DNA of 64,000 bases from Escherichia coli (GTDB lineage: Bacteria > Pseudomonadota > Gammaproteobacteria > Enterobacterales > Enterobacteriaceae): NCBI RefSeq assembly GCF_050920415.1, contig NZ_CP169309.1. The stretch is one strand, 5' to 3'. Of this stretch, positions 2,086-30,527 are shown one piece after another. Below the pieces are notes generated by a model, which searched no databases, was not told the DNA's origin, and saw nothing but the letters and a program-made list of their open reading frames with translations. A program made the position numbers and the translations under genes. Each line of letters begins with the position of its first letter. Position 1 is the stretch's first letter.

Positions 2086-4643
2086 CGTCCACCTCCGGAG
2101 AACAGGCCACCATCACGCATCTGTGTCTGAATTTCATCACGGGCACCCTTGCGGGCCATGTCATACACCGCCTTCAGAGCAGCCGGACCTATCTGCCCGT
2201 TCGTGCCGTCGTTGTTAATCACCACATGGTTATTCTGCTCAAACGTCCCGGACGCCTGCGACCGGCTGTCTGCCATGCTGCCCGGTGTACCGACATAACC
2301 GCCGGTGGCATAGCCGCGCATCAGCCGGTAAAGATTCCCCACGCCAATCCGGCTGGTTGCCTCCTTCGTGAAGACAAACTCACCACGGTGAACAATCCCC
2401 GCTGGCTCATATTTGCCGCCGGTTCCCGTAAATCCTCCGGTTGCAAAATGGAATTTCGCCGCAGCGGCCTGAATGGCTGTACCGCCTGACGCGGATGCGC
2501 CGCCACCAACAGCCCCGCCAATGGCGCTGCCGATACTCCCGACAATCCCCACCATTGCCTGCTTAAGCAGAATTTCTGTCATCATGGACAGCACGGAACG
2601 GGTGAAGCTGCGCCAGTTCTGCTCACTGCCGGTCAGCATCGCTGCCATATTCTGTGCAATACCATCAAAGGTCTGCGTGGCTGCACTTTTTACCTGCGAC
2701 ATACTGTCCGTGGCGCTCTCTTCCCACTCACTCCAGCCGGACTTCAGGCCTGCCATCCAGCTCCCGCGAAGCTGGTCTTCAGCCGCCCAGGTCTTTTTCT
2801 GCTCTGACATGACGTTATTCAGCGCCAGCGGATTATCGCCATACTGTTCCTTCAGGCGCTGTTCCGTGGCTTCCCGTTCTGCCGGCCGGTCAGTCAGCCC
2901 CCGGCTTTTCGCATCAATGGCGGCCCGTTTTGCCCGTTGCTGCTGTGCGAATTTATCCGCCTGCTGCGCCAGCGCGTTCAGGCGCTCCTGATACGTAACC
3001 TTGTCGCCAAGTGCAGCCAGCTGGCGTTTGTACTCCAGCGTCTCATCTTTATGCGCCAGCAGGGATTTCTCCTGTGCGGACAGCTGGCGACGTTGTGCCG
3101 CCTCCTCCAGTACCGCGAACTGACTTTCTGCCTTCCACAAATCCCGGCGCTGCTGGCTGATTTTCTCATTTGCTCCGGCATGCTTCTCCAGCGTCCGGAG
3201 TTCTGCCTGAAGCGTCAGCAGGGCAGCATGAGCACTGTCTTCCTGACGATCGCCCGCAGACACCTTCACGCCGGACTGTTTCGGCTTTTTCAGCGTCGCT
3301 TCATAATCCTTTTTCGCCGCCGCCATCAGCGTGTTGTAATCCGCCTGCAGGATTTTCCCGTCTTTCAGTGCCTTGTTCAGTTCTTCCTGACGGGCGGTAT
3401 ATTTCTCCAGCGGCGTCTGCAGCCGTTCGTAAGCCTTCTGCGCCTCTTCGGTATATTTCAGCCGTGACGCTTCGGTATCGCTCTGCTGCTGCGCATTTTT
3501 GTCCTGTTGAGTCTGCTGCTCAGCCTTCTTTCGGGCGGCTTCAAGCGCAAGACGGGCCTTTTCACGATCATCCCAGTAACGCGCCCGCGCTTCATCGTTA
3601 ACAAAATAATCATCCTTGCGCAGATTCCAGATGTCGTCTGCTTTCTTAAACGCAGCCTCTGCCTTAATCAGCATCTCCTGCGCGGTATCAGGACGACCAA
3701 TATCCAGCACCGCATCCCACATGGATTTGAAGGCCCGCGCAGTCCTGTCTGCCCAGGTCTCCAGCGTGCCCATGTTCTCTTTCAGGCGGCGGGTCTGGTC
3801 ATCAAACCCTTTCGTTGCGGCCTCGTTCGCCGCCTGCAATGCCCCGGCTTCATCGCCGGAACGCTGCAACTGAGCAACATACGCAATCTGCTCCGCCGTC
3901 ACGTTATGGAACTGGCGTGCCATCGCCGTCAGCCCCGACGTCGGGTCTGTGGTCAGCTTCCCGAAGGCTTCAGCGACCTTGTCCACCTCCACGCCGGATG
4001 CAGAGGAGAAACGCGCCACACTCTGGCTGATGGACGCAATCTGAGCCTCACCGCTTACCCCCGCCTTAACCAGTGCGCTGAGTGACTCGCTGGTCTGGTT
4101 AAACGTCAGCCCTGCCGCCTGCCCGGCTCTGGACAGGACCAGCATGCGATCTGCCGTCAGACCCGACTGATTGCCGGAAAGGACCAGCGTTTTGTTGAAA
4201 TCGGACAGGGTTGAGTTGCCCTGATACCAGGCATACGCCAGCGCACCGGTCGCCACCGCCAGCGAGGTGGCCCCCACCATCGGCAGGGTGATCGCACCGG
4301 CAAGCCCCCTGAACATGGGGATCATCCCGCCGAAGGAGTCCTTCACCTGCCCCCCCTGTTGCAGCAGGATCAGCCACGGACTTTGCCCGCCTGCAAGCTG
4401 CGTGGCCACGTCGGTGAACTGTGCAGGCAGCATACGCATGGCGGCTTTATACTGCCCGACGGAAATCCCCGCTTTCTGTGCAGCCAGCGCCTGTCGGCTC
4501 AGCGACTGTTCAACGACTGCCGCTGTTTTTTTCGCATCACTTTCCGTACCGGAAAAATGACGCCTGACTCTGGCCATCTGCTCGTCAAATCTGGCCGCAT
4601 CCAGACTTAAATCAACGACCAGATCGCCTACCGGTTCAGCCAT
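2082..4643 (-). CDS. H: tail tape measure protein (lambda gpH-like)
   Basis: Track ORF 853 aa MAEPVGDLVVDLSLDAARFDEQMARVRRHFSG...; Ala/Gln-rich coiled-coil body with a Gly-rich C-terminal region. Confidence 0.95.
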   Translation of the reverse strand: MAEPVGDLVVDLSLDAARFDEQMARVRRHFSGTESDAKKTAAVVEQSLSRQALAAQKAGISVGQYKAAMRMLPAQFTDVATQLAGGQSPWLILLQQGGQVKDSFGGMIPMFRGLAGAITLPMVGATSLAVATGALAYAWYQGNSTLSDFNKTLVLSGNQSGLTADRMLVLSRAGQAAGLTFNQTSESLSALVKAGVSGEAQIASISQSVARFSSASGVEVDKVAEAFGKLTTDPTSGLTAMARQFHNVTAEQIAYVAQLQRSGDEAGALQAANEAATKGFDDQTRRLKENMGTLETWADRTARAFKSMWDAVLDIGRPDTAQEMLIKAEAAFKKADDIWNLRKDDYFVNDEARARYWDDREKARLALEAARKKAEQQTQQDKNAQQQSDTEASRLKYTEEAQKAYERLQTPLEKYTARQEELNKALKDGKILQADYNTLMAAAKKDYEATLKKPKQSGVKVSAGDRQEDSAHAALLTLQAELRTLEKHAGANEKISQQRRDLWKAESQFAVLEEAAQRRQLSAQEKSLLAHKDETLEYKRQLAALGDKVTYQERLNALAQQADKFAQQQRAKRAAIDAKSRGLTDRPAEREATEQRLKEQYGDNPLALNNVMSEQKKTWAAEDQLRGSWMAGLKSGWSEWEESATDSMSQVKSAATQTFDGIAQNMAAMLTGSEQNWRSFTRSVLSMMTEILLKQAMVGIVGSIGSAIGGAVGGGASASGGTAIQAAAAKFHFATGGFTGTGGKYEPAGIVHRGEFVFTKEATSRIGVGNLYRLMRGYATGGYVGTPGSMADSRSQASGTFEQNNHVVINNDGTNGQIGPAALKAVYDMARKGARDEIQTQMRDGGLFSGGGR

Positions 4644-10762: not shown

Positions 10763-14443
<3,681 letters not shown>

Positions 14444-14469
<26 letters not shown>

Positions 14470-14989
14470 TCAGCAACCCCGGTATCAGTTCATCCAGCGC
14501 GGCTGCTTTGTTCATGGCTTTGATGATATCCCGTTTCAGGAAATCAACATGTCGGTTTTCCAGTTCCGGAAAACGCCGCTGCACCGACAGGGGGATCCCG
14601 TCGAGAATACTGGCAATTTCACCTGCGATCCGCGACAGCACGAAAGTACAGAATGCGGTTTCCACCACTTCAGCGGAGTCTCTGGCATTTTTCAGCTCCT
14701 GTGCGTCGGCCTGCGCACGCGTAAGTCGATGGCGTTCGTACTCAATAGTCCCTGGCTGGAGATCTGTCTCGCTGGCCTGCCGCAGTTCTTCAACTTCCCG
14801 GCGCAGCTTTTCGTTCTCAATTTCAGCATCCCTTTCGGCATACCATTTTATGACGGCGGCAGAATCATAAAGCACCTCATTACCCTTGCCACCGCCTCGC
14901 AGAACGGGCATTCCCTGCTCCTGCCAGTTCTGAATGGTACGGATACTCGCACCGAAAATATCAGCCAGCTGCTTTTTGTTGACTTCCAT
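14444..14989 (-). CDS. nu1: terminase small subunit Nu1 (lambda gpNu1-like)
   Basis: Track ORF 181 aa MEVNKKQLADIFGASIRTIQNWQEQGMPVLRGGGKGNE... (winged-HTH N-terminus). Confidence 0.95.
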
Positions 14990-14999
14990 TGTTCATTCC

Positions 15000-15200
15000 A
15001 CGGACAAAAACAGAGAAAGGAAACGACAGAGGCCAAAAAGCTCGCTTTCAGCACCTGTCGTTTCCTTTCTTTTCAGAGGGTATTTTAAATAAAAACATTA
15101 AGTTATGACGAAGAAGAACGGAAACGCCTTAAACCGGAAAATTTTCATAAATAGCGAAACCCCGCGAGGTCGCCGCCCCGTAACCTGTCGGATCGCCGGA
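15000..15200 (-). other. cos: cos site (cosB-cosN-cosQ); 12-nt cohesive-end sequence GGGCGGCGACCT present as reverse complement at ~15167-15178
   Basis: Reverse complement of 15001-15200 matches the lambda cos region as I recall it (GGGCGGCGACCTCGCGGG...TTTATGAAAATTTTCCGGTTTAAGGCGTTTCC...; other side ...CGGGTCCTTTCCGGCGATCCGACAGGTTACG); sits immediately upstream of Nu1. Confidence 0.8.
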
Positions 15201-15377
15201 AAGGACCCGCAAAATGATAATAATTATCATCTACATGTCACAACGTGCATCTACGCCATCAAACCACGTCAAATAATCAATTATGACGCAGGTATCGTAT
15301 TAATTGATCCGCATCAACTTAACGTAAAAACAACTTCAGACAATACAAATCAGCGACACTGAATACGGGGCAACCTC

Positions 15378-15572
15378 ATGTCAACGAAGAACAGAACCCG
15401 CAGAACAACAACCCGCAACATCCGCTTTCCTAACCAAATGATTGAACAAATTAACATCGCTCTTGATCAAAAAGGGTCCGGGAATTTCTCAGCCTGGGTC
15501 ATTGAAGCCTGCCGTCGGAGGCTAACGTCAGAAAAGAGAGCATATACATCAATTAAAAGTGATGAAGAATGA
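15378..15572 (+). CDS. ylcI: DUF3950-family small protein (DLP12 YlcI-like)
   Basis: Track ORF 64 aa MSTKNRTRRTTTRNIRFPNQMIEQINIALDQKGSGNFSAWVIEACRRRL...; recalled as YlcI-like, ribbon-helix-helix-like. Confidence 0.6.
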   Translation: MSTKNRTRRTTTRNIRFPNQMIEQINIALDQKGSGNFSAWVIEACRRRLTSEKRAYTSIKSDEE

Positions 15573-15736
15573 ACATCCCGCGTTCTTCCCTCCGAACAGG
15601 ACGATATTGTAAATTCACTTAATTACGAGGGCATTGCAGTAATTGAGTTGCAGTTTTACCACTTTCCTGACAGTGACAGACTGCGTGTTGGCTCTGTCAC
15701 AGGTTAAGTAGTTTGAATGATTAGCAGTTATGGTGA

Positions 15737-15943
15737 TCAGTCAACCACCAGGGAATAATCCTTCATATTATTATCGTGCTTCACCAACGCTGCCTCAATT
15801 GCCCTGAATGCTTCCAGAGACACCTTATGTTCTATACATGCAATTACAACATCAGGGTAACTCATAGAAATGGTGCTATTAAGCATATTTTTTACACGAA
15901 TCAGATCCACGGAGGGATCATCAGCAGATTGTTCTTTATTCAT
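15737..15943 (-). CDS. ybcW: hypothetical protein (DLP12 YbcW-like)
   Basis: Track ORF 68 aa [40 protein letters not shown]... Confidence 0.6.
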
Positions 15944-16186
15944 TTTGTCGCTCCATGCGCTTGCTCTTCATCTAGCGGTTAAAATATTACTTCAAATCTT
16001 TCTGTATGAAGATTTGAGCACGTTGGCCTTACATACATCTGTCGGTTGTATTTCCCTCCAGAATGCCAGCAGGACCGCACTTTGTTACACAACCAATACT
16101 ATTAATTGAAAACATTCCTAATATTTGACATAAATCATCAACAAAACACAAAGAGGTCAGACCAGATTGAAACGATAAAAACGATA

Positions 16187-16639
16187 ATGCAAACTACGCG
16201 CCCTCGTATCACATGGAAGGTTTTACCAATGGCTCAGGTTGCCATTTTTAAAGAAATATTCGATCAAGTGCGAAAAGATTTAAACTGTGAATTGTTTTAT
16301 TCTGAACTAAAACGTCACAATGTCTCACATTATATTTACTATCTAGCCACAGATAATATTCACATTGTGTTAGAAAACGATAACACTGTGTTAATAAAAG
16401 GACTTAAAAAGGTTGTAAATGTTAAATTCTCAAGAAATACGCATCTTATAGAAACGTCCTTTGATAGGTTGAAATCAAGAGAAATCACATTTCAGCAATA
16501 CAGGGAAAATCTTGCTAAAGCAGGAGTTTTCCGATGGGTTACAAATATCCACGAACATAAAAGATATTACTATACCTTTGATAATTCATTACTATTTACT
16601 GAGAGCATTCAGAACACTACACAAATCTTTCCACGCTAA
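16187..16639 (+). CDS. ybcV: DUF1398-family protein (DLP12 YbcV-like)
   Basis: Track ORF 16106-16639; start chosen at internal Met [32 protein letters not shown]... Confidence 0.6.
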
Positions 16640-16929
16640 ATCATAACGTCCGGTTTCTTCCGTGTCAGCACCGGGGCGTTGGCATAATGCAATACGTGTA
16701 CGCGCTAAACCCTGTGTGCATCGTTTTTAATTATTCCCGGACACTCCCGCAGAGAAGTTCCCCGTCAGGGCTGTGGACATAGTTAATCCGGGAATACAAT
16801 GACGATTCATCGCACCTGACATACATTAATAAATATTAACAATATGAAATTTCAACTCATTGTTTAGGGTTTGTTTAATTTTCTACACATACGATTCTGC
16901 GAACTTCAAAAAGCATCGGGAATAACACC

Positions 16930-17223
16930 ATGAAAAAAATGCTACTCGCTACTGCGCTGGCCCTGCTTATTACAGGATGTGCTCAACAGACGTTTACTGT
17001 TCAAAACAAACAGACAGCAGTAGCACCAAAGGAAACCATCACCCATCATTTCTTCGTTTCTGGAATTGGGCAGAAGAAAACTGTCGATGCAGCCAAAATT
17101 TGTGGCGGCGCAGAAAATGTTGTTAAAACAGAAACCCAGCAAACATTCGTAAATGGATTGCTCGGTTTTATTACTTTAGGCATTTATACTCCGCTGGAAG
17201 CGCGTGTGTATTGCTCAAAATAA
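16930..17223 (+). CDS. bor: Bor lipoprotein (serum-resistance lysogenic conversion protein)
   Basis: Track ORF 97 aa MKKMLLATALALLITGCAQQTFTVQNKQTAVAPKET...; lipobox LITGC; opposite strand to late genes as in lambda. Confidence 0.85.
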   Translation: MKKMLLATALALLITGCAQQTFTVQNKQTAVAPKETITHHFFVSGIGQKKTVDAAKICGGAENVVKTETQQTFVNGLLGFITLGIYTPLEARVYCSK

Positions 17224-17254
17224 TTGCATGAGTTGCCCATCGATATGGTCAGCT

Positions 17255-17716
17255 CTATCTGCACTGCTCATTAATATACTTCTGGGTTCCTTCCAGTTGT
17301 TTTTGCATAGTGATCAGCCTCTCTCTGAGGGTGAAATAATCCCGTTCAGCGGTGTCTGCCAGTCGGGGGGAGGCTGCATTATCCACGCCGGAGGCGGTGG
17401 TGGCTTCACGCACTGACTGACAGACTGCTTTGATGTGCAACCGACGACGACCAGCGGCAACATCATCACGCAGAGCATCATTTTCAGCTTTCGCATCAGC
17501 TAACTCCTTCGTGTATTTTGCATCGAGCGCAGCAACATCACGCTGACGCATCTGCATGTCAGTAATTGCCGCGTTCGCCAGCTTCAGTTCTCTGGCATTT
17601 TTGTCGCGCTGGGCTTTGTAGGTAATGGCGTTATCACGGTAATGATTAACAGCCCATGACAGGCAGACGATGATGCAGATAACCAGAGCGGAGATAATCG
17701 CGGTTACTCTGTTCAT
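17255..17716 (-). CDS. Rz: spanin inner-membrane subunit Rz (i-spanin)
   Basis: Track ORF 17255-17728; contains [39 protein letters not shown]...; lambda Rz-like. Confidence 0.9.
17314..17496 (-). CDS. Rz1: spanin outer-membrane lipoprotein subunit Rz1 (o-spanin), embedded in Rz in the +1 frame
   Basis: Track ORF 60 aa [46 protein letters not shown]...; lipobox VVGC and Pro-rich segment. Confidence 0.85.
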
Positions 17717-18998: not shown

Positions 18999-20096
18999 AT
19001 GAAAAAATTAACAGTGGCAATTTCTGCTGTAGCTGCATCAGTACTGATGGCGATGTCTGCTCAGGCAGCTGAAATTTATAATAAAGACAGTAACAAGCTG
19101 GATCTGTACGGGAAAGTTAATGCTAAGCACTACTTCTCCTCTAATGATGCAGATGATGGTGATACTACTTATGCCCGTCTTGGCTTCAAAGGTGAAACCC
19201 AAATCAACGATCAGCTGACTGGTTTCGGTCAGTGGGAATATGAATTCAAAGGCAACCGCGCTGAATCTCAAGGTTCCTCCAAAGACAAAACCCGTCTTGC
19301 ATTTGCAGGCCTGAAATTCGGTGACTACGGCTCAATCGATTACGGCCGTAACTACGGTGTAGCATACGACATCGGTGCGTGGACTGACGTTCTGCCAGAA
19401 TTCGGTGGCGATACCTGGACCCAAACAGATGTGTTCATGACTGGTCGTACCACTGGTGTTGCAACCTATCGTAACAACGACTTCTTTGGTCTGGTTGATG
19501 GTCTGAACTTTGCTGCTCAGTACCAAGGCAAAAACGATCGTAGCGATTTCGATAACTACACTGAAGGTAACGGTGATGGCTTCGGTTTCTCTGCTACCTA
19601 TGAATACGAAGGATTCGGTATCGGTGCAACTTATGCGAAATCTGATCGTACCGACACTCAAGTTAATGCAGGGAAAGTTCTTCCTGAAGTATTTGCTTCC
19701 GGTAAAAATGCAGAAGTTTGGGCCGCAGGTCTGAAATATGACGCTAACAACATTTACCTGGCCACTACCTATTCTGAAACCCAGAATATGACTGTATTTG
19801 CTGATCACTTCGTTGCTAATAAAGCTCAAAACTTCGAAGCTGTTGCACAATATCAGTTCGATTTCGGTCTGCGTCCGTCCGTTGCTTACCTGCAATCTAA
19901 AGGTAAGGATCTTGGAGTATGGGGCGATCAGGACTTAGTCAAATATGTTGATGTAGGTGCAACCTATTACTTCAACAAAAATATGTCTACTTTCGTTGAT
20001 TACAAAATCAACCTGCTTGACAAAAATGACTTCACTAAAGCACTCGGTGTAAGCACTGATGACATCGTTGCTGTAGGTCTGGTTTACCAGTTCTAA
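18999..20096 (+). CDS. nmpC: outer membrane porin (NmpC/Lc-type general porin), apparently intact
   Basis: Track ORF 365 aa [46 protein letters not shown]...VGLVYQF; signal peptide and C-terminal aromatic residue typical of OmpC-family porins; lies between Q and S on the opposite strand as in DLP12/PA-2. Confidence 0.9.
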
Positions 20097-21541: not shown

Positions 21542-21704
21542 GATTCCTCCTTGCTGCCAGTCGCAACCATTTTTTATCAACCAGGCTAGCGGTATATCCG
21601 AGCAGTGTTGGTATTTCGGATGGCTTCAGCTCAGGCTTACGCTTACGACGATTTGGTACTCTGTAGATGTGTCCGTTCATGACACGAATAAGCGGTGTAG
21701 CCAT
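21534..21704 (-). CDS. ninE: NinE-like small protein
   Basis: Manual translation [56 protein letters not shown]; ATG overlaps the ybcN stop (TAATG); below track size cutoff. Confidence 0.6.
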   Translation of the reverse strand: MATPLIRVMNGHIYRVPNRRKRKPELKPSEIPTLLGYTASLVDKKWLRLAARRNHG

Positions 21705-22159
21705 TACGCCTCCTGCTTGTCGCGCAGCAGCTGGAACTCGCAGCTCTGCGGAATAGTCAGGTGGCAGCCAATATTCATCGCCCAGGCTTCAACCTTACAC
21801 AGGAAGACATACATCTCTCCGGTATCAAGATCGGAAGTATGGCGTAACGACTGGATAGTAGTGATTTCGCCGGTTACGACATCAACCAGGTCCTTGGTTT
21901 CATAACCGAGGTATGTGTGTTTGAGAGCATCTTTTACCCAAGCTGGAGTGGCGAACGTTTTACCCCTGCTGATGAGGTATTCACTGATTTCGCTGTACCA
22001 CATGTGGCTGAGTGCATTCTGGGAAAGACTGCGTTTCTCACGCCACGGTTTAAGCACCATGCGAAAGCATTTGCCTTCCTCCAGATAAGGCTGGATCTGC
22101 TGGCCGATAGCGGTGAAGTTACCACGATGCAATTTGATGCCGTCTTGTGGGAGGTTCAC
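21704..22159 (-). CDS. ybcN: NinB-position protein (DLP12 YbcN-like)
   Basis: Track ORF 151 aa, GTG start preceded by [47 protein letters not shown]... Confidence 0.75.
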
Positions 22160-22193
22160 GCTTCACCTCCGCAGAGGTCAAACGCTGGATGCA

Positions 22194-22278
22194 AAAAATC
22201 GCAGGTGCATCTCTGCATCTGTGAAGGGAGAAGAGAGTTTGGATTGTATGTGCGCATAAACGTCCCCGTTTAGCGCAG
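22194..22278. repeat. ~85-bp direct repeat, copy A (partner at 24128-24211, ~93% identical)
   Basis: AAAAATCGCAGGTGCATCTCTGCATCTGTGAAGGGAGAAGAGAGTTTGGATTGTATGTGCGCATAAACGTCCCCGTTTAGCGCA; contains imperfect hairpin GCGCATAAACG-TCCCC-GTTTAGCGC. Confidence 0.75.
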
Positions 22279-22353: not shown

Positions 22354-22863
22354 TTAGTCTGCCAAGTCTTCCTCAGTCGCAACTGGGTAATTCCAAATAT
22401 CAAAAAAAGCTATAGCCTCCTGCCATTTGCTCCATAAGTTATCAAGTACTTGTGTAGGTTCCGTACTTTTAAAAACAGAATCAGCCGCATCACCGTTATG
22501 AACTTCCTCGTACAGTTCCATTATTAGCAGATTAACAAAGTACTGTTTCAACATTAATGCCTGATTACCTTCTTTCTGCTGGCTATCCTGCTTGATGAGC
22601 TCCATCGCCCGTACTAGGCACCTGATGATATCCGCTGCATCATTAACGCTCCATTCAGATCCGCGCTTATCTTTAGCTGATGAATTGGCTCTCTCAGCGC
22701 AAGCCTTTAAAGACTCATAAAGGTAAACTCTATTTTGTAGCTGCAGCGCTTTTTTTGACGTGCACCAACTTGCAAGCGCCGACCCCGCTGCGGCTAATGT
22801 GCCAAACGCAGAAATGCCTGCTGCTATTGCACTTAAGTCGGCACTGTCAAAGTTCCACATCAT
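22354..22863 (-). CDS. hypothetical protein with one N-terminal hydrophobic helix; no family recognised
   Basis: Track ORF 169 aa MMWNFDSADLSAIAAGISAFGTLAAAGSALASWCTSKK...; AT-rich upstream region; lies inside the repeat-bracketed cassette. Confidence 0.6.
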   Translation of the reverse strand: MMWNFDSADLSAIAAGISAFGTLAAAGSALASWCTSKKALQLQNRVYLYESLKACAERANSSAKDKRGSEWSVNDAADIIRCLVRAMELIKQDSQQKEGNQALMLKQYFVNLLIMELYEEVHNGDAADSVFKSTEPTQVLDNLWSKWQEAIAFFDIWNYPVATEEDLAD

Positions 22864-23098: not shown

Positions 23099-23707
23099 TT
23101 ATTGCAACAGATTCTGACGGAAATATGGTAACACACGACTCCACTTATCATCCTGCCACGGTTGGAATTTTACATGCGCCGTTTCTCTGGCAAGGATTTC
23201 TCGCGCCCTGTTGAGTATCCGAGGATATTCTTGTTCGATTGAAGTGAATCTACCTGCTTCGCGATGCTCTGCGACCTGAAGAAGGGGCGTAACGTTCTGG
23301 CAGGCGGTTAACATCGTATCACTTGCTCGCCATAACCAGGCGAGTGTGCAAAGTTCGTTATCAGTGAATTGTTTTGTGATTGGGGATTGTTGAACTTCTC
23401 GATCGAGAATATCCAGAACCCAGCGGCGGAATTCTTTGGCCACAGGAGTACGAGCAAACATGGCGATCAAATGGGCTCCGCGAAGGCTAAATACTCGAGA
23501 CTCCTGCATTCCACGAGGGGTGGTCACTTTGACCACCCTTGTCATCATATCTGTGAATTCATCTGAGTGCCGAGAGTAAATGCGCTGAACTGCTTTATCG
23601 TCCGCATATTCCAGTGCTAAACCAACTTCAGTGGCAGTAAGCCAAATTCTGTTATTGTGGCAAATCGGGGTAAACGTCGTTTTGTGGAATGCTAATTGAG
23701 TAGTCAT
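23099..23707 (-). CDS. Bro-N / antirepressor-like domain protein
   Basis: Track ORF 202 aa MTTQLAFHKTTFTPICHNNRIWLTATEVGLALEYADDKAVQRIYSRHSDEFTD...; N-terminal region resembles Bro-N/KilA-N phage regulatory domains (pattern recognition only). Confidence 0.55.
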   Translation of the reverse strand: MTTQLAFHKTTFTPICHNNRIWLTATEVGLALEYADDKAVQRIYSRHSDEFTDMMTRVVKVTTPRGMQESRVFSLRGAHLIAMFARTPVAKEFRRWVLDILDREVQQSPITKQFTDNELCTLAWLWRASDTMLTACQNVTPLLQVAEHREAGRFTSIEQEYPRILNRAREILARETAHVKFQPWQDDKWSRVLPYFRQNLLQ

Positions 23708-24060: not shown

Positions 24061-24127
24061 ATCACCTTTAGCCGCCAGACGAATAGAGACTCCCAATTCT
24101 GGCTGTCGAAGTAAAACACCGAATGTA

Positions 24128-24211
24128 AAAAATCGTAGGTGCATTTCTGCATCTGTGAATGGAGATGAGAGTTTGGATTGTGTGTGCGCATAAACGTCCC
24201 CGTTTAGCGCA
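24128..24211. repeat. ~85-bp direct repeat, copy B (partner at 22194-22278)
   Basis: AAAAATCGTAGGTGCATTTCTGCATCTGTGAATGGAGATGAGAGTTTGGATTGTGTGTGCGCATAAACGTCCCCGTTTAGCGCA; about 6 mismatches versus copy A. Confidence 0.75.
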
Positions 24212-24519
24212 ACCCCACCACCGGGTGTTCAGGCCGACAGTAACTATATTATTCCCTACTGATTTTTGAAAATCAAAGGTCTTTATACGTCACACGAGAG
24301 CAAATATTTCCGAAGAAGAAACCTTTCGCCTTGAAAGGATAAAGAGTTCATTTCATAAATTGAAATATTCAATAAGAATATTGCAAAAAATGAAATTATT
24401 TACTAGCGAGTCTATCTAACTGATAATTATGAAGATTGTAAGCGGTAGCAATCACCCGCATACACATTGAACAGGATTTAATACAAAACGTCTTAAATTG
24501 TCCGTAAGGAATAGCACGA

Positions 24520-26022
24520 ATGACTCAAACTCCTCTATTACTTGCAATCATATTTTTATTGGTTGTTCTTGTTCTTTATATAGCTGCAATCAAACGCATC
24601 AAAAAAATACAATTAGAATTAAGTGATAGCAATCAAAAAAATGAAGAATACAAATCTCGCTTTGCAGATTATTTTAATGTAGAAGAAGAATGTAAGAAGC
24701 TTATTGAGAAAACAGAGCAAGAATGCTCCATAATAAAAGAAGAATCCCTAAAAGTAAAAGAAAATGCCAATAATGAACTAACAAACACCATTGAAAAAAT
24801 GGATGGTATCAATAAACAAATCCAAGAGCTAAGAAGAACTTATAAAGAGAAGAAAGAAATATATGATAAACTAGTAAGGCAAATTTCTATTTATTCAGAA
24901 GATGTTGAGCTAGCCGAACTAGGATTTTACGAACCTCATTTTAATTTTGAAGATTCAGAGCAATTTAAAAACAAAATAAAATCCATCAGGGATGAACAGA
25001 AATTAATGCTGCGGGATAAAACCCACTCTGGCGCAGTATATTGTACAACCCAATGGACTGTTGAAGGCTCTCGAGCAGAGGGTAAAAAAATGACAGACAG
25101 AAATATCAGGCTAACTACTAGAGCATTTAATAATGAATGTGATGCTGCAATTAGCAATTGCACGTGGAAAAACATCACTAAAATGGAAGAACGCATCACA
25201 AAGGCATTTGAGGCCATAAATAAACTAAACGAGCAAAATCACATATATATAAACACTAAATACCTCAATAAAAAACTTGAGGAATTGTGGCTTACCCATG
25301 AATATCGTGAGCAAAAACAGAAAGAAAAAGAAGAACAGGCAGAAATAAGGGCACAAATGAGAGAGGAGGAGCGTGCACAACGAGAAATAGAAAAGGCCAT
25401 GCAAGACGCAGAGGCAGAAGAGCGCCGTTATAAAAAAGCAATTGAAGCTGCAAGAAAGGAAATGGAAAAAGTTACTGGTGACATGAAGCAGCGCCTCGAA
25501 AATCGCATTGCCGAACTAGAACAGAGTTTGTCGCAGGCTGAATCAAAGCATCAAAGAGCATTATCCATGGCACAACAAACCAAACAAGGTCATGTTTATA
25601 TTATTTCGAACATAGGTTCTTTTGGGGAGAATGTTTATAAAATAGGCATGACACGACGTCTTGATCCGCAAGACCGTGTAAATGAGCTCGGTGATGCATC
25701 TGTTCCTTTTATTTTTGATGTACATGCCATGATTTATTCGGAGGACGCTCCATCATTAGAAAAAAAACTACATGATGTCTTCGATAAAAAGAGAGTCAAT
25801 CTTGTAAATCGTAGAAAAGAGTTTTTCTATGTTACTCTGGATGAGATCAAAGAAGCTGTTAAAAAACACTCTGATTCAGAAATTGAATTTATTGAGACAG
25901 CAGTCGCAAAAGACTTTAATGAGTCATTGGCTATTCGTAATCATGAAAATAAAAAAAGTGACAACAGCAACTCATCAATTATACCTGAGCGAAAAACCCC
26001 AGAGTTTGCAGATGCAATTTAA
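24520..26022 (+). CDS. membrane-anchored coiled-coil protein with C-terminal GIY-YIG/T5orf172-like domain (DUF4041-like architecture); candidate defence moron
   Basis: Track ORF 500 aa: N-terminal TM helix (LLLAIIFLLVVLVLYIAAI), ~300 residues Lys/Glu-rich coiled coil, then GHVYIISNIGSFGENVYKIGMTRRLDPQDRVNELG...EKKLHDVF...RKEFFYV; RBS AAGGAA; strongly AT-rich; opposite strand to flanking phage genes. Confidence 0.8.
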   Translation: MTQTPLLLAIIFLLVVLVLYIAAIKRIKKIQLELSDSNQKNEEYKSRFADYFNVEEECKKLIEKTEQECSIIKEESLKVKENANNELTNTIEKMDGINKQIQELRRTYKEKKEIYDKLVRQISIYSEDVELAELGFYEPHFNFEDSEQFKNKIKSIRDEQKLMLRDKTHSGAVYCTTQWTVEGSRAEGKKMTDRNIRLTTRAFNNECDAAISNCTWKNITKMEERITKAFEAINKLNEQNHIYINTKYLNKKLEELWLTHEYREQKQKEKEEQAEIRAQMREEERAQREIEKAMQDAEAEERRYKKAIEAARKEMEKVTGDMKQRLENRIAELEQSLSQAESKHQRALSMAQQTKQGHVYIISNIGSFGENVYKIGMTRRLDPQDRVNELGDASVPFIFDVHAMIYSEDAPSLEKKLHDVFDKKRVNLVNRRKEFFYVTLDEIKEAVKKHSDSEIEFIETAVAKDFNESLAIRNHENKKSDNSNSSIIPERKTPEFADAI

Positions 26023-26270
26023 TTAATTTGTAGTAGCAATAAAGCAGGCATCGTTGAGAATATTTTGTCAGCGATGCTTACTTCTCTAACAAAAACGGTG
26101 ATTACCAACGAACTAACGGACTTCAGGTAATCATAAGACAAATGGAACGACTCTCCGGTGATTAGATCCCTGCAATAACAGTAATTTTCTACTAACTGAA
26201 AAATCTTTAACTGCCGCTCCTATTTCTAAGCTGACTGCTAGATTACATGGTGTGTTACCGATGAAAACCG

Positions 26271-26573
26271 TCACAGCAAGTTTAAGTTCATATCTCCATA
26301 CACTGCCAACACTCGTTTCATCGCGGCACTCTGGCGACACTCCTTGAAAATCAGATTCGTGCTCACCTTTCCTTCCCGTTCTTCCCTGGTAGCGAACCGG
26401 TAATACACCGTTCGCCAGACCTTACCATCAACGACCAAGATTCCTGCCCGTGCCATTTTAGCCGCAGCCTGATTTATACTGGTTACTGTTGCGCCTGTTA
26501 CCGCAGCAACGTCCTGCGCACAGAAGCTCTTATGCGTCCCCAGGTAATGAATAATTGCCTCTTTGCCCGTCAT
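26271..26573 (-). CDS. ren: Ren protein (lambda Ren-like)
   Basis: Track ORF 100 aa MTGKEAIIHYLGTHKSFCAQDVAAVTGATVTSINQAAAKMARAGILVVDGKVW... Confidence 0.85.
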   Translation of the reverse strand: MTGKEAIIHYLGTHKSFCAQDVAAVTGATVTSINQAAAKMARAGILVVDGKVWRTVYYRFATREEREGKVSTNLIFKECRQSAAMKRVLAVYGDMNLNLL

Positions 26574-27271
26574 ACAGTTGCTCCTTTCAGTCCGAACTTC
26601 GCTTTGATTTCTGCGATCTTCGCCAGAGCCTGTGCACGATTTAGAGGTCTACCGCCCATGACAGGAAGTTGTTTTACTGGTTCAGGTATCGCCTCACCAC
26701 GGTTAATTCGCGCGGTCATACAAGTCAGTTCATCGGCAGCCTTGCGCCGTAATTCCGCATCAGTAAGCGCATTGGCCCGCATGTTCTGATACAGGTTGGT
26801 AACCAGCCAGTAGTGCGCGTTTGATTTCCACGGATAAGACTCTGCATCTGGATACAGGCCACGTTTCCGGCAATACTCGTAAACCATATCAACCAGCTCG
26901 CTGGCGTTTGGCAGCCCGGCGGTAACGGATGCTTCTTCCCGGCACCAGGCAACAAACTGCCCGGGTGATGGCAGGAATGGTCGATTCTGCCGACGGGCTA
27001 CGCGCATTCCTGCGTCAACCTGTTCCATCGTGGTGATCCCGTTTTCCCGGAAAGCCAGAACCCACTGGCGGCGGATTTCGTTCAGTTCGTTCTGGTCCCG
27101 GTTAGCCAGGCTCGCCGGGAAAGTTGCCAGTAACTGGCTGAACACACCATTGATGATCTGCGCTACCTGTTGTACCTGCGGCTTTTCGTCGTACTGTTCC
27201 GGCATGTTGTTGGCGATCCGGCGCATCTGCTCACGGTCAAAGTTAACCATCTGTGCGGCGATGTTTTTCAT
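26570..27271 (-). CDS. P: replication protein P (DnaB helicase loader, lambda P-like)
   Basis: Track ORF 233 aa MKNIAAQMVNFDREQMRRIANNMPEQYDEKPQVQQVAQIINGVF... Confidence 0.9.
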   Translation of the reverse strand: MKNIAAQMVNFDREQMRRIANNMPEQYDEKPQVQQVAQIINGVFSQLLATFPASLANRDQNELNEIRRQWVLAFRENGITTMEQVDAGMRVARRQNRPFLPSPGQFVAWCREEASVTAGLPNASELVDMVYEYCRKRGLYPDAESYPWKSNAHYWLVTNLYQNMRANALTDAELRRKAADELTCMTARINRGEAIPEPVKQLPVMGGRPLNRAQALAKIAEIKAKFGLKGATV

Positions 27272-28287
27272 AAATCCACCCCGTAAATCCAGTCAGTGTT
27301 TGTCAGGTCGAGTTTTGATTTTCCGGCTATCACGCCAGCCTGTTGCTTGTTACGGTTGATTTCGAGTTGGGTCCACTTGTCGCGGAGTTTGGCCGGACTT
27401 AGCACGTTACCGGACCAGAAGTTGTCCTGGCATGCCCAGCGGAACAGCACGCACATGTCGCGGTGGTTACGGCCGTCACGTTCACGCATCAGGCGGATAT
27501 CGTTAGCCCACCCTGCAAAATTCGGTTTTCTGGCTGATGGCGCGATGGTCTTCACCATGTCAAACATCCACTCTGCGGCGGTCAGGTCTTCTGCTGTCCC
27601 CCACCTGCTGCCGCTCTGAATTGCAGCATCTGGTTTCTCCACAGGAAGATCGTTTTCTGGTTGGTCAGAGGATTCGCCAGAATTCTCGGACGAAAAAGGT
27701 TTTATATTGTCTTTTGTTAGTTTGTCTTTTGTGTTTACCTGATTCGGGTAAGTGCCTTTACCTGATTTGGGTAAACTTTTCTTACCTGATTCAGGTAAAT
27801 TTACCTCTTTCAGGTAAACTTTATTTTTCTTACCTGATTCGGGTAATGTTGACCATTCACTGACCACATTATTAATGCCGATATTCCGCCCGCTCTGAAT
27901 AAAAATCCCACGCTTTACCAGAACACTTTTTGCAGCAGAACACTTGTGCGGCAATATCCCGGTCAACTCGGAAAGTTGCTCGTTGCTCACCCAATCCAGT
28001 TTTTTATTAAAGCCATATGTTTTGCGCATGACAGCCAGGAAGACCAGAAGCTGGTGCTGTGTTAATCCGGCCAGCATCACAGCTTCCAGCAACTCATTTG
28101 CAATGCGCGTATAACCATCATCGAGATCTGCCACGCGCGGCTCCTTTTGTGCCGCATCCGGCACTGGAAAATTGAATATCTCAGCAGTGTTTGCCATAAT
28201 TCCTCCCGCAATGAGTGTGTTACGATTTGCACCTGAAAGTCGGTTCTGTTCCCGCAGACCGACTTTCGCCATTTCTGAACCTGTCAT
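27268..28287 (-). CDS. O: replication initiator O (lambdoid O-like; origin iterons inside the gene)
   Basis: Track ORF 339 aa (start uncertain; internal Met at MANTAEIFNF...); C-terminal part resembles the lambda O P-interaction domain; iterons at 27735-27846 lie within the coding sequence. Confidence 0.8.
   Translation of the reverse strand: MTGSEMAKVGLREQNRLSGANRNTLIAGGIMANTAEIFNFPVPDAAQKEPRVADLDDGYTRIANELLEAVMLAGLTQHQLLVFLAVMRKTYGFNKKLDWVSNEQLSELTGILPHKCSAAKSVLVKRGIFIQSGRNIGINNVVSEWSTLPESGKKNKVYLKEVNLPESGKKSLPKSGKGTYPNQVNTKDKLTKDNIKPFSSENSGESSDQPENDLPVEKPDAAIQSGSRWGTAEDLTAAEWMFDMVKTIAPSARKPNFAGWANDIRLMRERDGRNHRDMCVLFRWACQDNFWSGNVLSPAKLRDKWTQLEINRNKQQAGVIAGKSKLDLTNTDWIYGVDL
27698..27846. 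repeat. ori: replication origin: five palindromic iterons (TACCTGATTCGGGTA-like) plus adjacent AT-rich segment
   Basis: Copies at ~27736-27750, 27759-27773, 27783-27797, 27802-27816, 27831-27845; AT-rich stretch 27698-27734 on the downstream side relative to O. Confidence 0.65.
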
Positions 28288-30146: not shown

Positions 30147-30527
30147 ATGAGAAAAATCCTAATCGCTGCCATGATGGCATCTGTATTGGCTGGGTGTGCT
30201 TCTTCAGGCAACCAGCAACTCAAAAATGAAACTGAAATTAGTGTCCAGTCTAAACTTCAGGAAGGTAAAACAACCAAGAATGAGGTTAAATCTTACTTTG
30301 GTTCTCCTGATGCTGTTTCATATACTGACAGTGGAAACGAGATCTGGAAGTACGCCTTTGCAAAAGTAAAAGTTAATGGCACCACTTTTATTCCATTCTA
30401 TGGATTATTCCATAATGGAACGAACGGTACGAAAAAAGAACTTACTATTCTTTTTAACGATGACACGATTAAGAAATACACAATGTCAGAAACCCAAATA
30501 AACTCGAAATCAGGTTGGGCTGACTGA
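30147..30527 (+). CDS. lipoprotein of unknown function, located directly downstream of cI (rex position)
   Basis: Track ORF 126 aa MRKILIAAMMASVLAGCASSGNQQLKNETEISVQSKLQEGK...; lipobox LAGC; AT-rich; followed by a terminator. Confidence 0.7.
   Translation: MRKILIAAMMASVLAGCASSGNQQLKNETEISVQSKLQEGKTTKNEVKSYFGSPDAVSYTDSGNEIWKYAFAKVKVNGTTFIPFYGLFHNGTNGTKKELTILFNDDTIKKYTMSETQINSKSGWAD

Follow-up and report, generated by a model that had tools for sequence, protein, structure and literature searches.

The gene at positions 24520..26022 (plus strand) of the 64,000-nucleotide stretch of Escherichia coli DNA analysed here (the window) is almost certainly the already published SNIPE, also named PD-λ-1, carried as a ren/nin-junction moron by a PhiR26_1-like lambdoid prophage at the argU (DLP12) site. 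Gene, allele and prophage are already known, and the architecture has been named PD-λ-1 (2022) and then SNIPE (2025 preprint, Nature 2026). PD-λ-1 was discovered in ECOR26 (Vassallo et al. 2022, Nat Microbiol, PMC9519451), its source being protein RCP76574.1, encoded at 49060-50562 of contig QOXL01000020 (PMC9519451 supplement). It was renamed SNIPE and characterized by Saxton et al. (bioRxiv 2025, 10.1101/2025.11.03.685801; Nature 2026, PMC13190303). An earlier reading of this DNA, made by a model without database searches (the sequence-only reading), had proposed a single-gene anti-phage module and named profile HMM searches, PADLOC and the genomic context of homologues as ways to check it. 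The proposal is borne out by a full-length match to PD-Lambda-1 in PADLOC and by the published defence phenotype of the identical allele.

The assignment is based on several lines of evidence. The protein matches the PADLOC model PD-Lambda-1 PDLC03976 with E = 1.9e-198, residues 1-485 falling on positions 1-485 of a 491-position profile, and a second PD-Lambda-1 model, PDLC03977, with E = 7e-195. An ORF of 1.5 kb at 35% GC with a full-length profile match of E = 1e-198 is far beyond chance. The gene measures 1503 bp both in the window and as PD-λ-1 in ECOR26, and the Pfam families and their coordinates are those of the PD-λ-1 HHpred table in the Vassallo supplement. The SNIPE paper names nine residues (E414, E223, W257, L253, E264, K305, T319, I308 and N250), each of which is found at the same position in the window protein. 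For 24 published SNIPE primers, every gene-specific portion is an exact match; together they sample 515 nt between the ATG and a point 36 nt downstream of the stop codon, and one of them, oDS8, matches exactly at 26020-26058. In addition, a tblastn search of a phage collection returned 100% identity over 500 aa to the 'PD-lambda-1' of Escherichia phage PhiR26_1 (PV340555.1). The identity to the ECOR26 clone rests on the gene length, the nine residues, the 515 nt sampled and the identical PhiR26_1 protein. On domain level, the transmembrane segment (5-24), DUF4041 (197-252) and GIY-YIG domain (357-449) are alike in the window protein and in ECOR26 SNIPE/PD-λ-1, and no difference was detected. 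In RefSeq, the protein is WP_000195116.1, called either 'SNIPE associated domain-containing protein' or 'DUF4041 domain-containing protein' where the same DNA occurs in other E. coli. The exact SNIPE protein is present on at least 1000 contigs and its cluster comprises 975 members; RCP76574.1 is absent among the cluster members listed. A literature search on PhiR26 or ECOR26 found nothing relevant. We presume that PhiR26_1 originates from the work of Brenes and Laub in 2025.

The domain anatomy of the window protein (Glu 13.6%, Lys 11%) follows from concordant Pfam matches, published primer boundaries and a full-length AlphaFold2 model (mean pLDDT of 75). This model consists of a helix over residues 5-124, a mixed α/β region at ∼146-244 (DUF4041), a helical hairpin at 246-353 and a β-β-α-β-α-β-α domain at 357-450. 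At the N-terminus, the hydropathy maximum (19-residue window, Kyte-Doolittle mean of 3.37) begins at residue 6, as anticipated by the sequence-only reading, which had seen one N-terminal transmembrane helix. This helix corresponds to residues 5-24 (PLLLAIIFLLVVLVLYIAAI; 24532..24591, plus strand): the AlphaFold2 helix starts at residue 5, and on the window sequence the ΔTM primers oDS47/48 fuse codon 4 to codon 25, resulting in the removal of residues 5-24. It is followed by a long, Lys/Glu-rich cytoplasmic α-helix (residues 25-124; 24592..24891), which the model draws as a single helix with the transmembrane segment. The N-terminal helical region has been described as a variable 'adapter' (PMC13190303). 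Next comes the DUF4041 core (residues 197-252; 25108..25275), published to bind DNA and to contact the tape measure protein; Pfam places DUF4041 (PF13250) at residues 198-252 (E = 1.2e-19), and the ΔDUF4041 primers oDS51/52 remove residues 197-252 on the window sequence. DUF4041 is connected to the nuclease by a helical hairpin linker (residues 246-353; 25255..25578) made of the AlphaFold2 helices 246-317 and 321-353, in which the window protein has the wild-type residues at the published gain-of-function sites E264K, K305N, I308V and T319A. The stretch of ∼300 heptad-like residues initially proposed is therefore only partly right: the helices are indeed Lys/Glu-rich, but the globular DUF4041 region (∼146-252) splits the helix ending at residue 124 from the hairpin at 246-353. 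In its anatomy of the protein, the sequence-only reading had not set DUF4041 apart as a globular domain of its own.

The C-terminal GIY-YIG domain of the T5orf172/MUG113 type, which had also been recognized in the sequence-only reading, spans residues 357-449 (25588..25866, plus strand). Pfam identifies T5orf172 at 357-449 (E = 6.9e-17) and MUG113 at 373-449 (E = 7e-19), so that with DUF4041 all three families are recovered by the profile search. In line with the GIY-YIG superfamily, the domain displays a three-stranded sheet with flanking helices, the GIY and YIG elements, and the conserved Arg, Glu and Asn. The codon of the catalytic residue Glu414 (GAA) is present at 25759..25761 and is exactly flanked by the E414A primers oDS92/93. 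A Foldseek search with the elongated full AlphaFold2 model gave no significant match, its globular matches being Slx1 structures only, and a sequence search of the PDB returned no relative, the best match (E = 0.078) lying on the charged helix. The SNIPE authors also state that structures are still needed (PMC13190303).

As described in the sequence-only reading, the ORF list contains a 500-aa plus-strand ORF at 24520..26022 (ATG start, 500 aa plus stop), opposite to the flanking genes. Its AT-rich composition is likewise evident, with a GC content of 35.1% versus 50.4% in the whole window. Local GC values range from 0.29 to 0.40 over the gene and its upstream region, as against 0.49-0.56 in the flanking phage genes. 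The gene has its own AT-rich intergenic region upstream (24212..24519; GC 0.31-0.35), and the ribosome-binding site initially noticed is found as a Shine-Dalgarno-like AAGGAA at 24506..24511 (plus strand), 8 nt before the ATG and covered with an exact match by the published primer oDS48. The sole plus-strand match to a sigma-70-like consensus upstream of SNIPE is TTTACT-17-GATAAT (24399-24427; 9/12 positions), and a promoter scan of this upstream region gave no convincing signal, the region not being clearly enriched over shuffles. Besides, the upstream part of the original functional PD-λ-1 clone was limited to the 62 nt preceding the ATG (Vassallo et al. 2022, PMC9519451). Since the putative promoter at 24399-24427 lies outside these 62 nt, it may not be the SNIPE promoter. 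On the other side, a terminator scan detected no terminator-like site in the intergenic interval (26023..26270) where SNIPE and ren converge.

The mode of action of the identical allele is well documented. SNIPE is constitutive and inserted in the inner membrane through its N-terminal transmembrane helix, with DUF4041 and the nuclease in the cytoplasm (PMC13190303). Defence is abolished by E414A or by deletion of DUF4041, which promotes DNA binding (PMC13190303). The ΔTM form moves to the nucleoid, causes double-strand breaks in host DNA and is highly toxic, a toxicity that E414A also removes (PMC13190303). Since the untethered protein is toxic and breaks host DNA, the nuclease has no intrinsic discrimination between self and non-self, and it is membrane tethering that keeps it off the chromosome (PMC13190303). 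By proximity labelling, SNIPE has ManYZ (the mannose permease) and the λ tape measure protein as neighbours; the tape measure protein is also where escape mutations fall, and it is recovered by crosslinking from SNIPE residue 250 (PMC13190303). Against the BASEL phages, SNIPE acts on most siphoviruses, in a ManYZ-independent manner, and on no myovirus or podovirus, while DUF4041 substitutions result in stronger defence against Bas14-18 (PMC13190303). The mechanism is also covered in a review (PMC12904381).

These data bear directly on the most serious competing explanation, namely an abortive-infection or toxic effector whose nuclease, once released or activated by infection, would degrade the DNA of the host and sacrifice the infected cell for the benefit of the population, an alternative that the sequence-only reading had offered. 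The high toxicity of the ΔTM form and the breaks that it introduces in host DNA would fit such an effector, and many single-gene nuclease defences work in this mode. However, cells carrying the identical allele do not lyse upon infection and grow to confluence, and high-MOI cultures survive, unlike those of the abortive-infection control PD-λ-3 (PMC13190303). In addition, radiolabelled λ DNA is cut upon injection, whereas a resident λ prophage is left untouched and induces normally in SNIPE cells (PMC13190303). Because infected cells survive, SNIPE is a direct defence; for λ, abortive infection is refuted by the published MOI and microscopy data, and we consider it very improbable for this gene.

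Even less probable is a selfish homing endonuclease of the GIY-YIG/T5orf172 type, which would propagate itself through cuts in related phage genomes devoid of the SNIPE gene and would not serve to protect the host. Domains of the T5orf172 and GIY-YIG families are characteristic of homing endonucleases in phages (PMC10448857), and the gene is AT-rich, patchily distributed among related prophages and located at a recombination-prone module junction, as could be expected for such an element. Yet the membrane anchor and DUF4041 take the place of sequence-specific DNA-binding modules, Pfam revealing no HTH, zinc-finger or NUMOD domain, and the membrane tether keeps SNIPE away from intracellular DNA, the replicating genome of a resident λ being spared. 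Moreover, homologues occupy lysogeny modules or moron slots and are not found in or beside conserved target genes. This is apparent from nine divergent phage-borne homologues (29-53% identity): in seven of them (CDMH1, PLE3, EJ-1, Poushou, Mask, MPV1 and a P2-like coliphage), the gene lies between a cI-like repressor and the integrase, on the repressor strand. In Salmonella phage ES18, the homologue gp19, previously marked as a 'possible moron', sits just upstream of the tape measure gene, and a Klebsiella homologue adjoins the replication gene RepB. More precisely, ES18 gp19 (2659-4188) belongs to the tail gene cluster, with one small moron gene (gp20) before the tape measure gene, whose product is the recognition target of SNIPE in incoming phages. 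In the alignment of 10 homologues, the N-terminal region is the most variable and can barely be aligned, and the nuclease domain is strongly conserved, with G357, V359, Y360, K374-I375-G376, R379, R380, H402, E414 and N430 invariant. The same conservation profile has been published for 474 homologues (PMC13190303).

Finally, the least credible alternative, an SMC-, ParA- or 'chromosome segregation ATPase'-like structural protein, is suggested by the names of homologues in public phage and genome records and by weak matches (NCBIfam ASRP at E = 6e-4, JetC and LmuB at E = 0.03-0.3), but these are far under the cut-offs (18.6 bits versus a curated 300) and limited to the Lys/Glu-rich helices, and neither an ATPase domain (Pfam, NCBIfam, AlphaFold2 model) nor Walker A/B motifs are present. 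The NCBIfam ASRP match (18.6 bits, cut-off 300), together with a sub-threshold MazE match, was dismissed as coiled-coil compositional noise. Mis-annotation of SNIPE homologues is widespread, with names such as 'chromosome segregation ATPase', 'AAA-ATPase', 'ParA', 'putative regulatory protein' or 'replication'. Since the helices are charged and no ATPase domain accompanies them, the labels 'chromosome segregation ATPase' and 'ParA' are compositional artefacts.

With SNIPE as the preferred identity, the prophage around the gene is also recognized. Window positions 12520-35711 align without gaps or rearrangement to the first 23.2 kb of PhiR26_1 (99.76% identity). All 55 substitutions fall within 12709-15978, over the Nu1/A terminase genes and shortly past them, far from SNIPE; the segment 15979-35711, which includes the whole early region and SNIPE, is consequently 100% identical. 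Such a cluster of substitutions in the packaging genes resembles a mosaic patch left by recombination. With a closely related complete genome as reference, the prophage can be placed beside tRNA-Arg and fimZ, which is the DLP12 attachment site. SNIPE converges on ren (26271..26573, minus strand; Ren-like phrog_142, E = 2.5e-41; 'protein ren' in RefSeq), the final gene of the O-P-ren replication block, and is antisense to the pR-driven O-P-ren-nin-Q operon. Toward higher coordinates, its neighbours all lie on the minus strand and comprise ren and the genes of a helicase loader (P-like), an initiator (O-like) and a CII-like protein. The start of the O-like initiator is ambiguous, namely 27268-28287 (339 aa, 1020 nt) in PhiR26_1 versus 27268..28197 in RefSeq for a related genome. 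Of 5426 complete E. coli genomes, 131 contain this SNIPE DNA, in every case on the chromosome and beside ren. In several complete E. coli genomes (H1, H20-H24), the region equivalent to window positions 24200-26300 is interrupted by IS5 or ISEc48, and two genome records annotate the SNIPE CDS as two pieces, suggesting repeated inactivation by insertion sequences. From these insertions in other genomes, SNIPE, which is intact in the window, is dispensable and sometimes disrupted.

Other parts of the prophage deserve mention. According to the PhiR26_1 annotation, plus-strand accessory genes encode Bor (16930-17223), an OmpD/NmpC-like porin (18999-20096) and a small lipoprotein (30147-30527). The porin gene sits between Q and the lysis genes, and the lipoprotein gene adjoins cI; the lipoprotein is BamE-like in RefSeq for a related genome and has no PADLOC match. 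More generally, PADLOC gave no match for five neighbouring accessory or early genes. At ∼15000-17500, the window follows PhiR26_1 (YbcW, YbcV, Bor), whereas the otherwise nearly identical prophage of strain 23-AB02114 encodes a DUF1398 protein and a regulator of the Rha family there. This segment, between the terminase and lysis genes, forms a further exchangeable module. The annotation of NZ_CP172871.1 is not transferable at ∼15-17 kb, the window following PhiR26_1 there.

The ren/nin junction had been regarded from the outset as a moron hotspot, in agreement with the differing cargo of the three layouts examined. In K-12 DLP12, the junction harbours emrE-ylcJ-ybcK-ybcL-ybcM; in strain E8, it contains SNIPE alone, and in the window SNIPE is accompanied by a two-gene cassette. 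Roughly 3,700 E. coli genomes possess the junction between ren and ylcH/ybcN. The placement of SNIPE between ren and the NinB-position gene, both on the minus strand, accordingly needs an amendment: SNIPE adjoins ren and the strands are right, but two minus-strand ORFs and a small ylcH-like ORF come before NinB/YbcN (21704..22159, minus strand; phrog_72). The two ORFs encode a Rha/Ant-like protein with a P22AR C-terminal domain (23099..23707, minus strand) and a phrog_1779 protein of uncharacterised function (22354..22863, minus strand). A 104-nt direct repeat (22174-22277 and 24108-24211, 89% identical), corresponding to the ylcH-like ORF upstream of ybcN/NinB, brackets this 1934-bp cassette, in which the Rha/Ant-like and phrog_1779 genes are both on the minus strand. 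The whole arrangement with the cassette is found in 83 of 130 SNIPE-carrying genomes; strain E8 is without it. PADLOC has no match for either cassette protein. Three joint readings of this native setting may be put forward, and we hold them at a low probability. The ylcH-like repeats could act as recombination linkers that shuffle the ren/ninB cargo, a conjecture we would rather doubt than defend. Equally speculative is a role of the Rha/Ant-like and phrog_1779 cassette as a defence or counter-defence module alongside SNIPE. The third, of similarly slender likelihood, is that the orientation of SNIPE against the pR operon might result in lysogen-specific expression.

SNIPE shares features with several known systems. 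As in Zorya and Kiwa, membrane localization confines its action to the incoming genome, and Zorya has also been proposed to end in DNA cleavage. However, Zorya (ZorAB motor) and Kiwa (KwaA-KwaB lattice) are multi-protein systems that sense envelope perturbation, whereas SNIPE consists of one polypeptide and binds directly to the injection machinery (ManYZ, tape measure protein); the PADLOC match of the SNIPE protein to ZorA is at chance level (E = 0.12). Superinfection exclusion proteins of the HK97 gp15 type are likewise prophage morons of the inner membrane that target the tape-measure-dependent DNA entry of siphoviruses, but they block entry without a nuclease, while SNIPE lets injection begin and cuts with its GIY-YIG domain. 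Among nucleases, SLX1, I-TevI, the UvrC N-terminal domain, R.Eco29kI and PD-T4-3 share the GIY-YIG fold and the Tyr/Arg/Glu/Asn constellation with SNIPE, yet have neither transmembrane anchor nor DUF4041. They owe their specificity to the structure, sequence or modification of the DNA; SNIPE owes its own to its subcellular position.

Extended to the window prophage, the published mechanism would operate as follows. As reported for the identical protein, SNIPE in the inner membrane would associate with ManYZ and the tape measure protein of an infecting siphovirus, and its GIY-YIG domain (catalytic residue E414) would cleave the phage DNA during injection, the cell surviving. In this lysogen, a promoter of its own probably drives SNIPE, in the direction opposite to the repressed pR operon, and the host would be protected from superinfection by λ-like and other siphoviruses. 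Such expression in the lysogen fits the position of seven of the nine phage homologues between repressor and integrase, in the same orientation as the repressor.

To conclude, the window adds one more instance of a PhiR26_1-like prophage carrying SNIPE, with no further new biology. Besides, a defence gene and its catalytic motif were recognizable by a model from the raw DNA letters. For the SNIPE family, the meaning lies in the way self is told from non-self, which is by the location of the DNA as it enters through the membrane and not by its sequence or modification.
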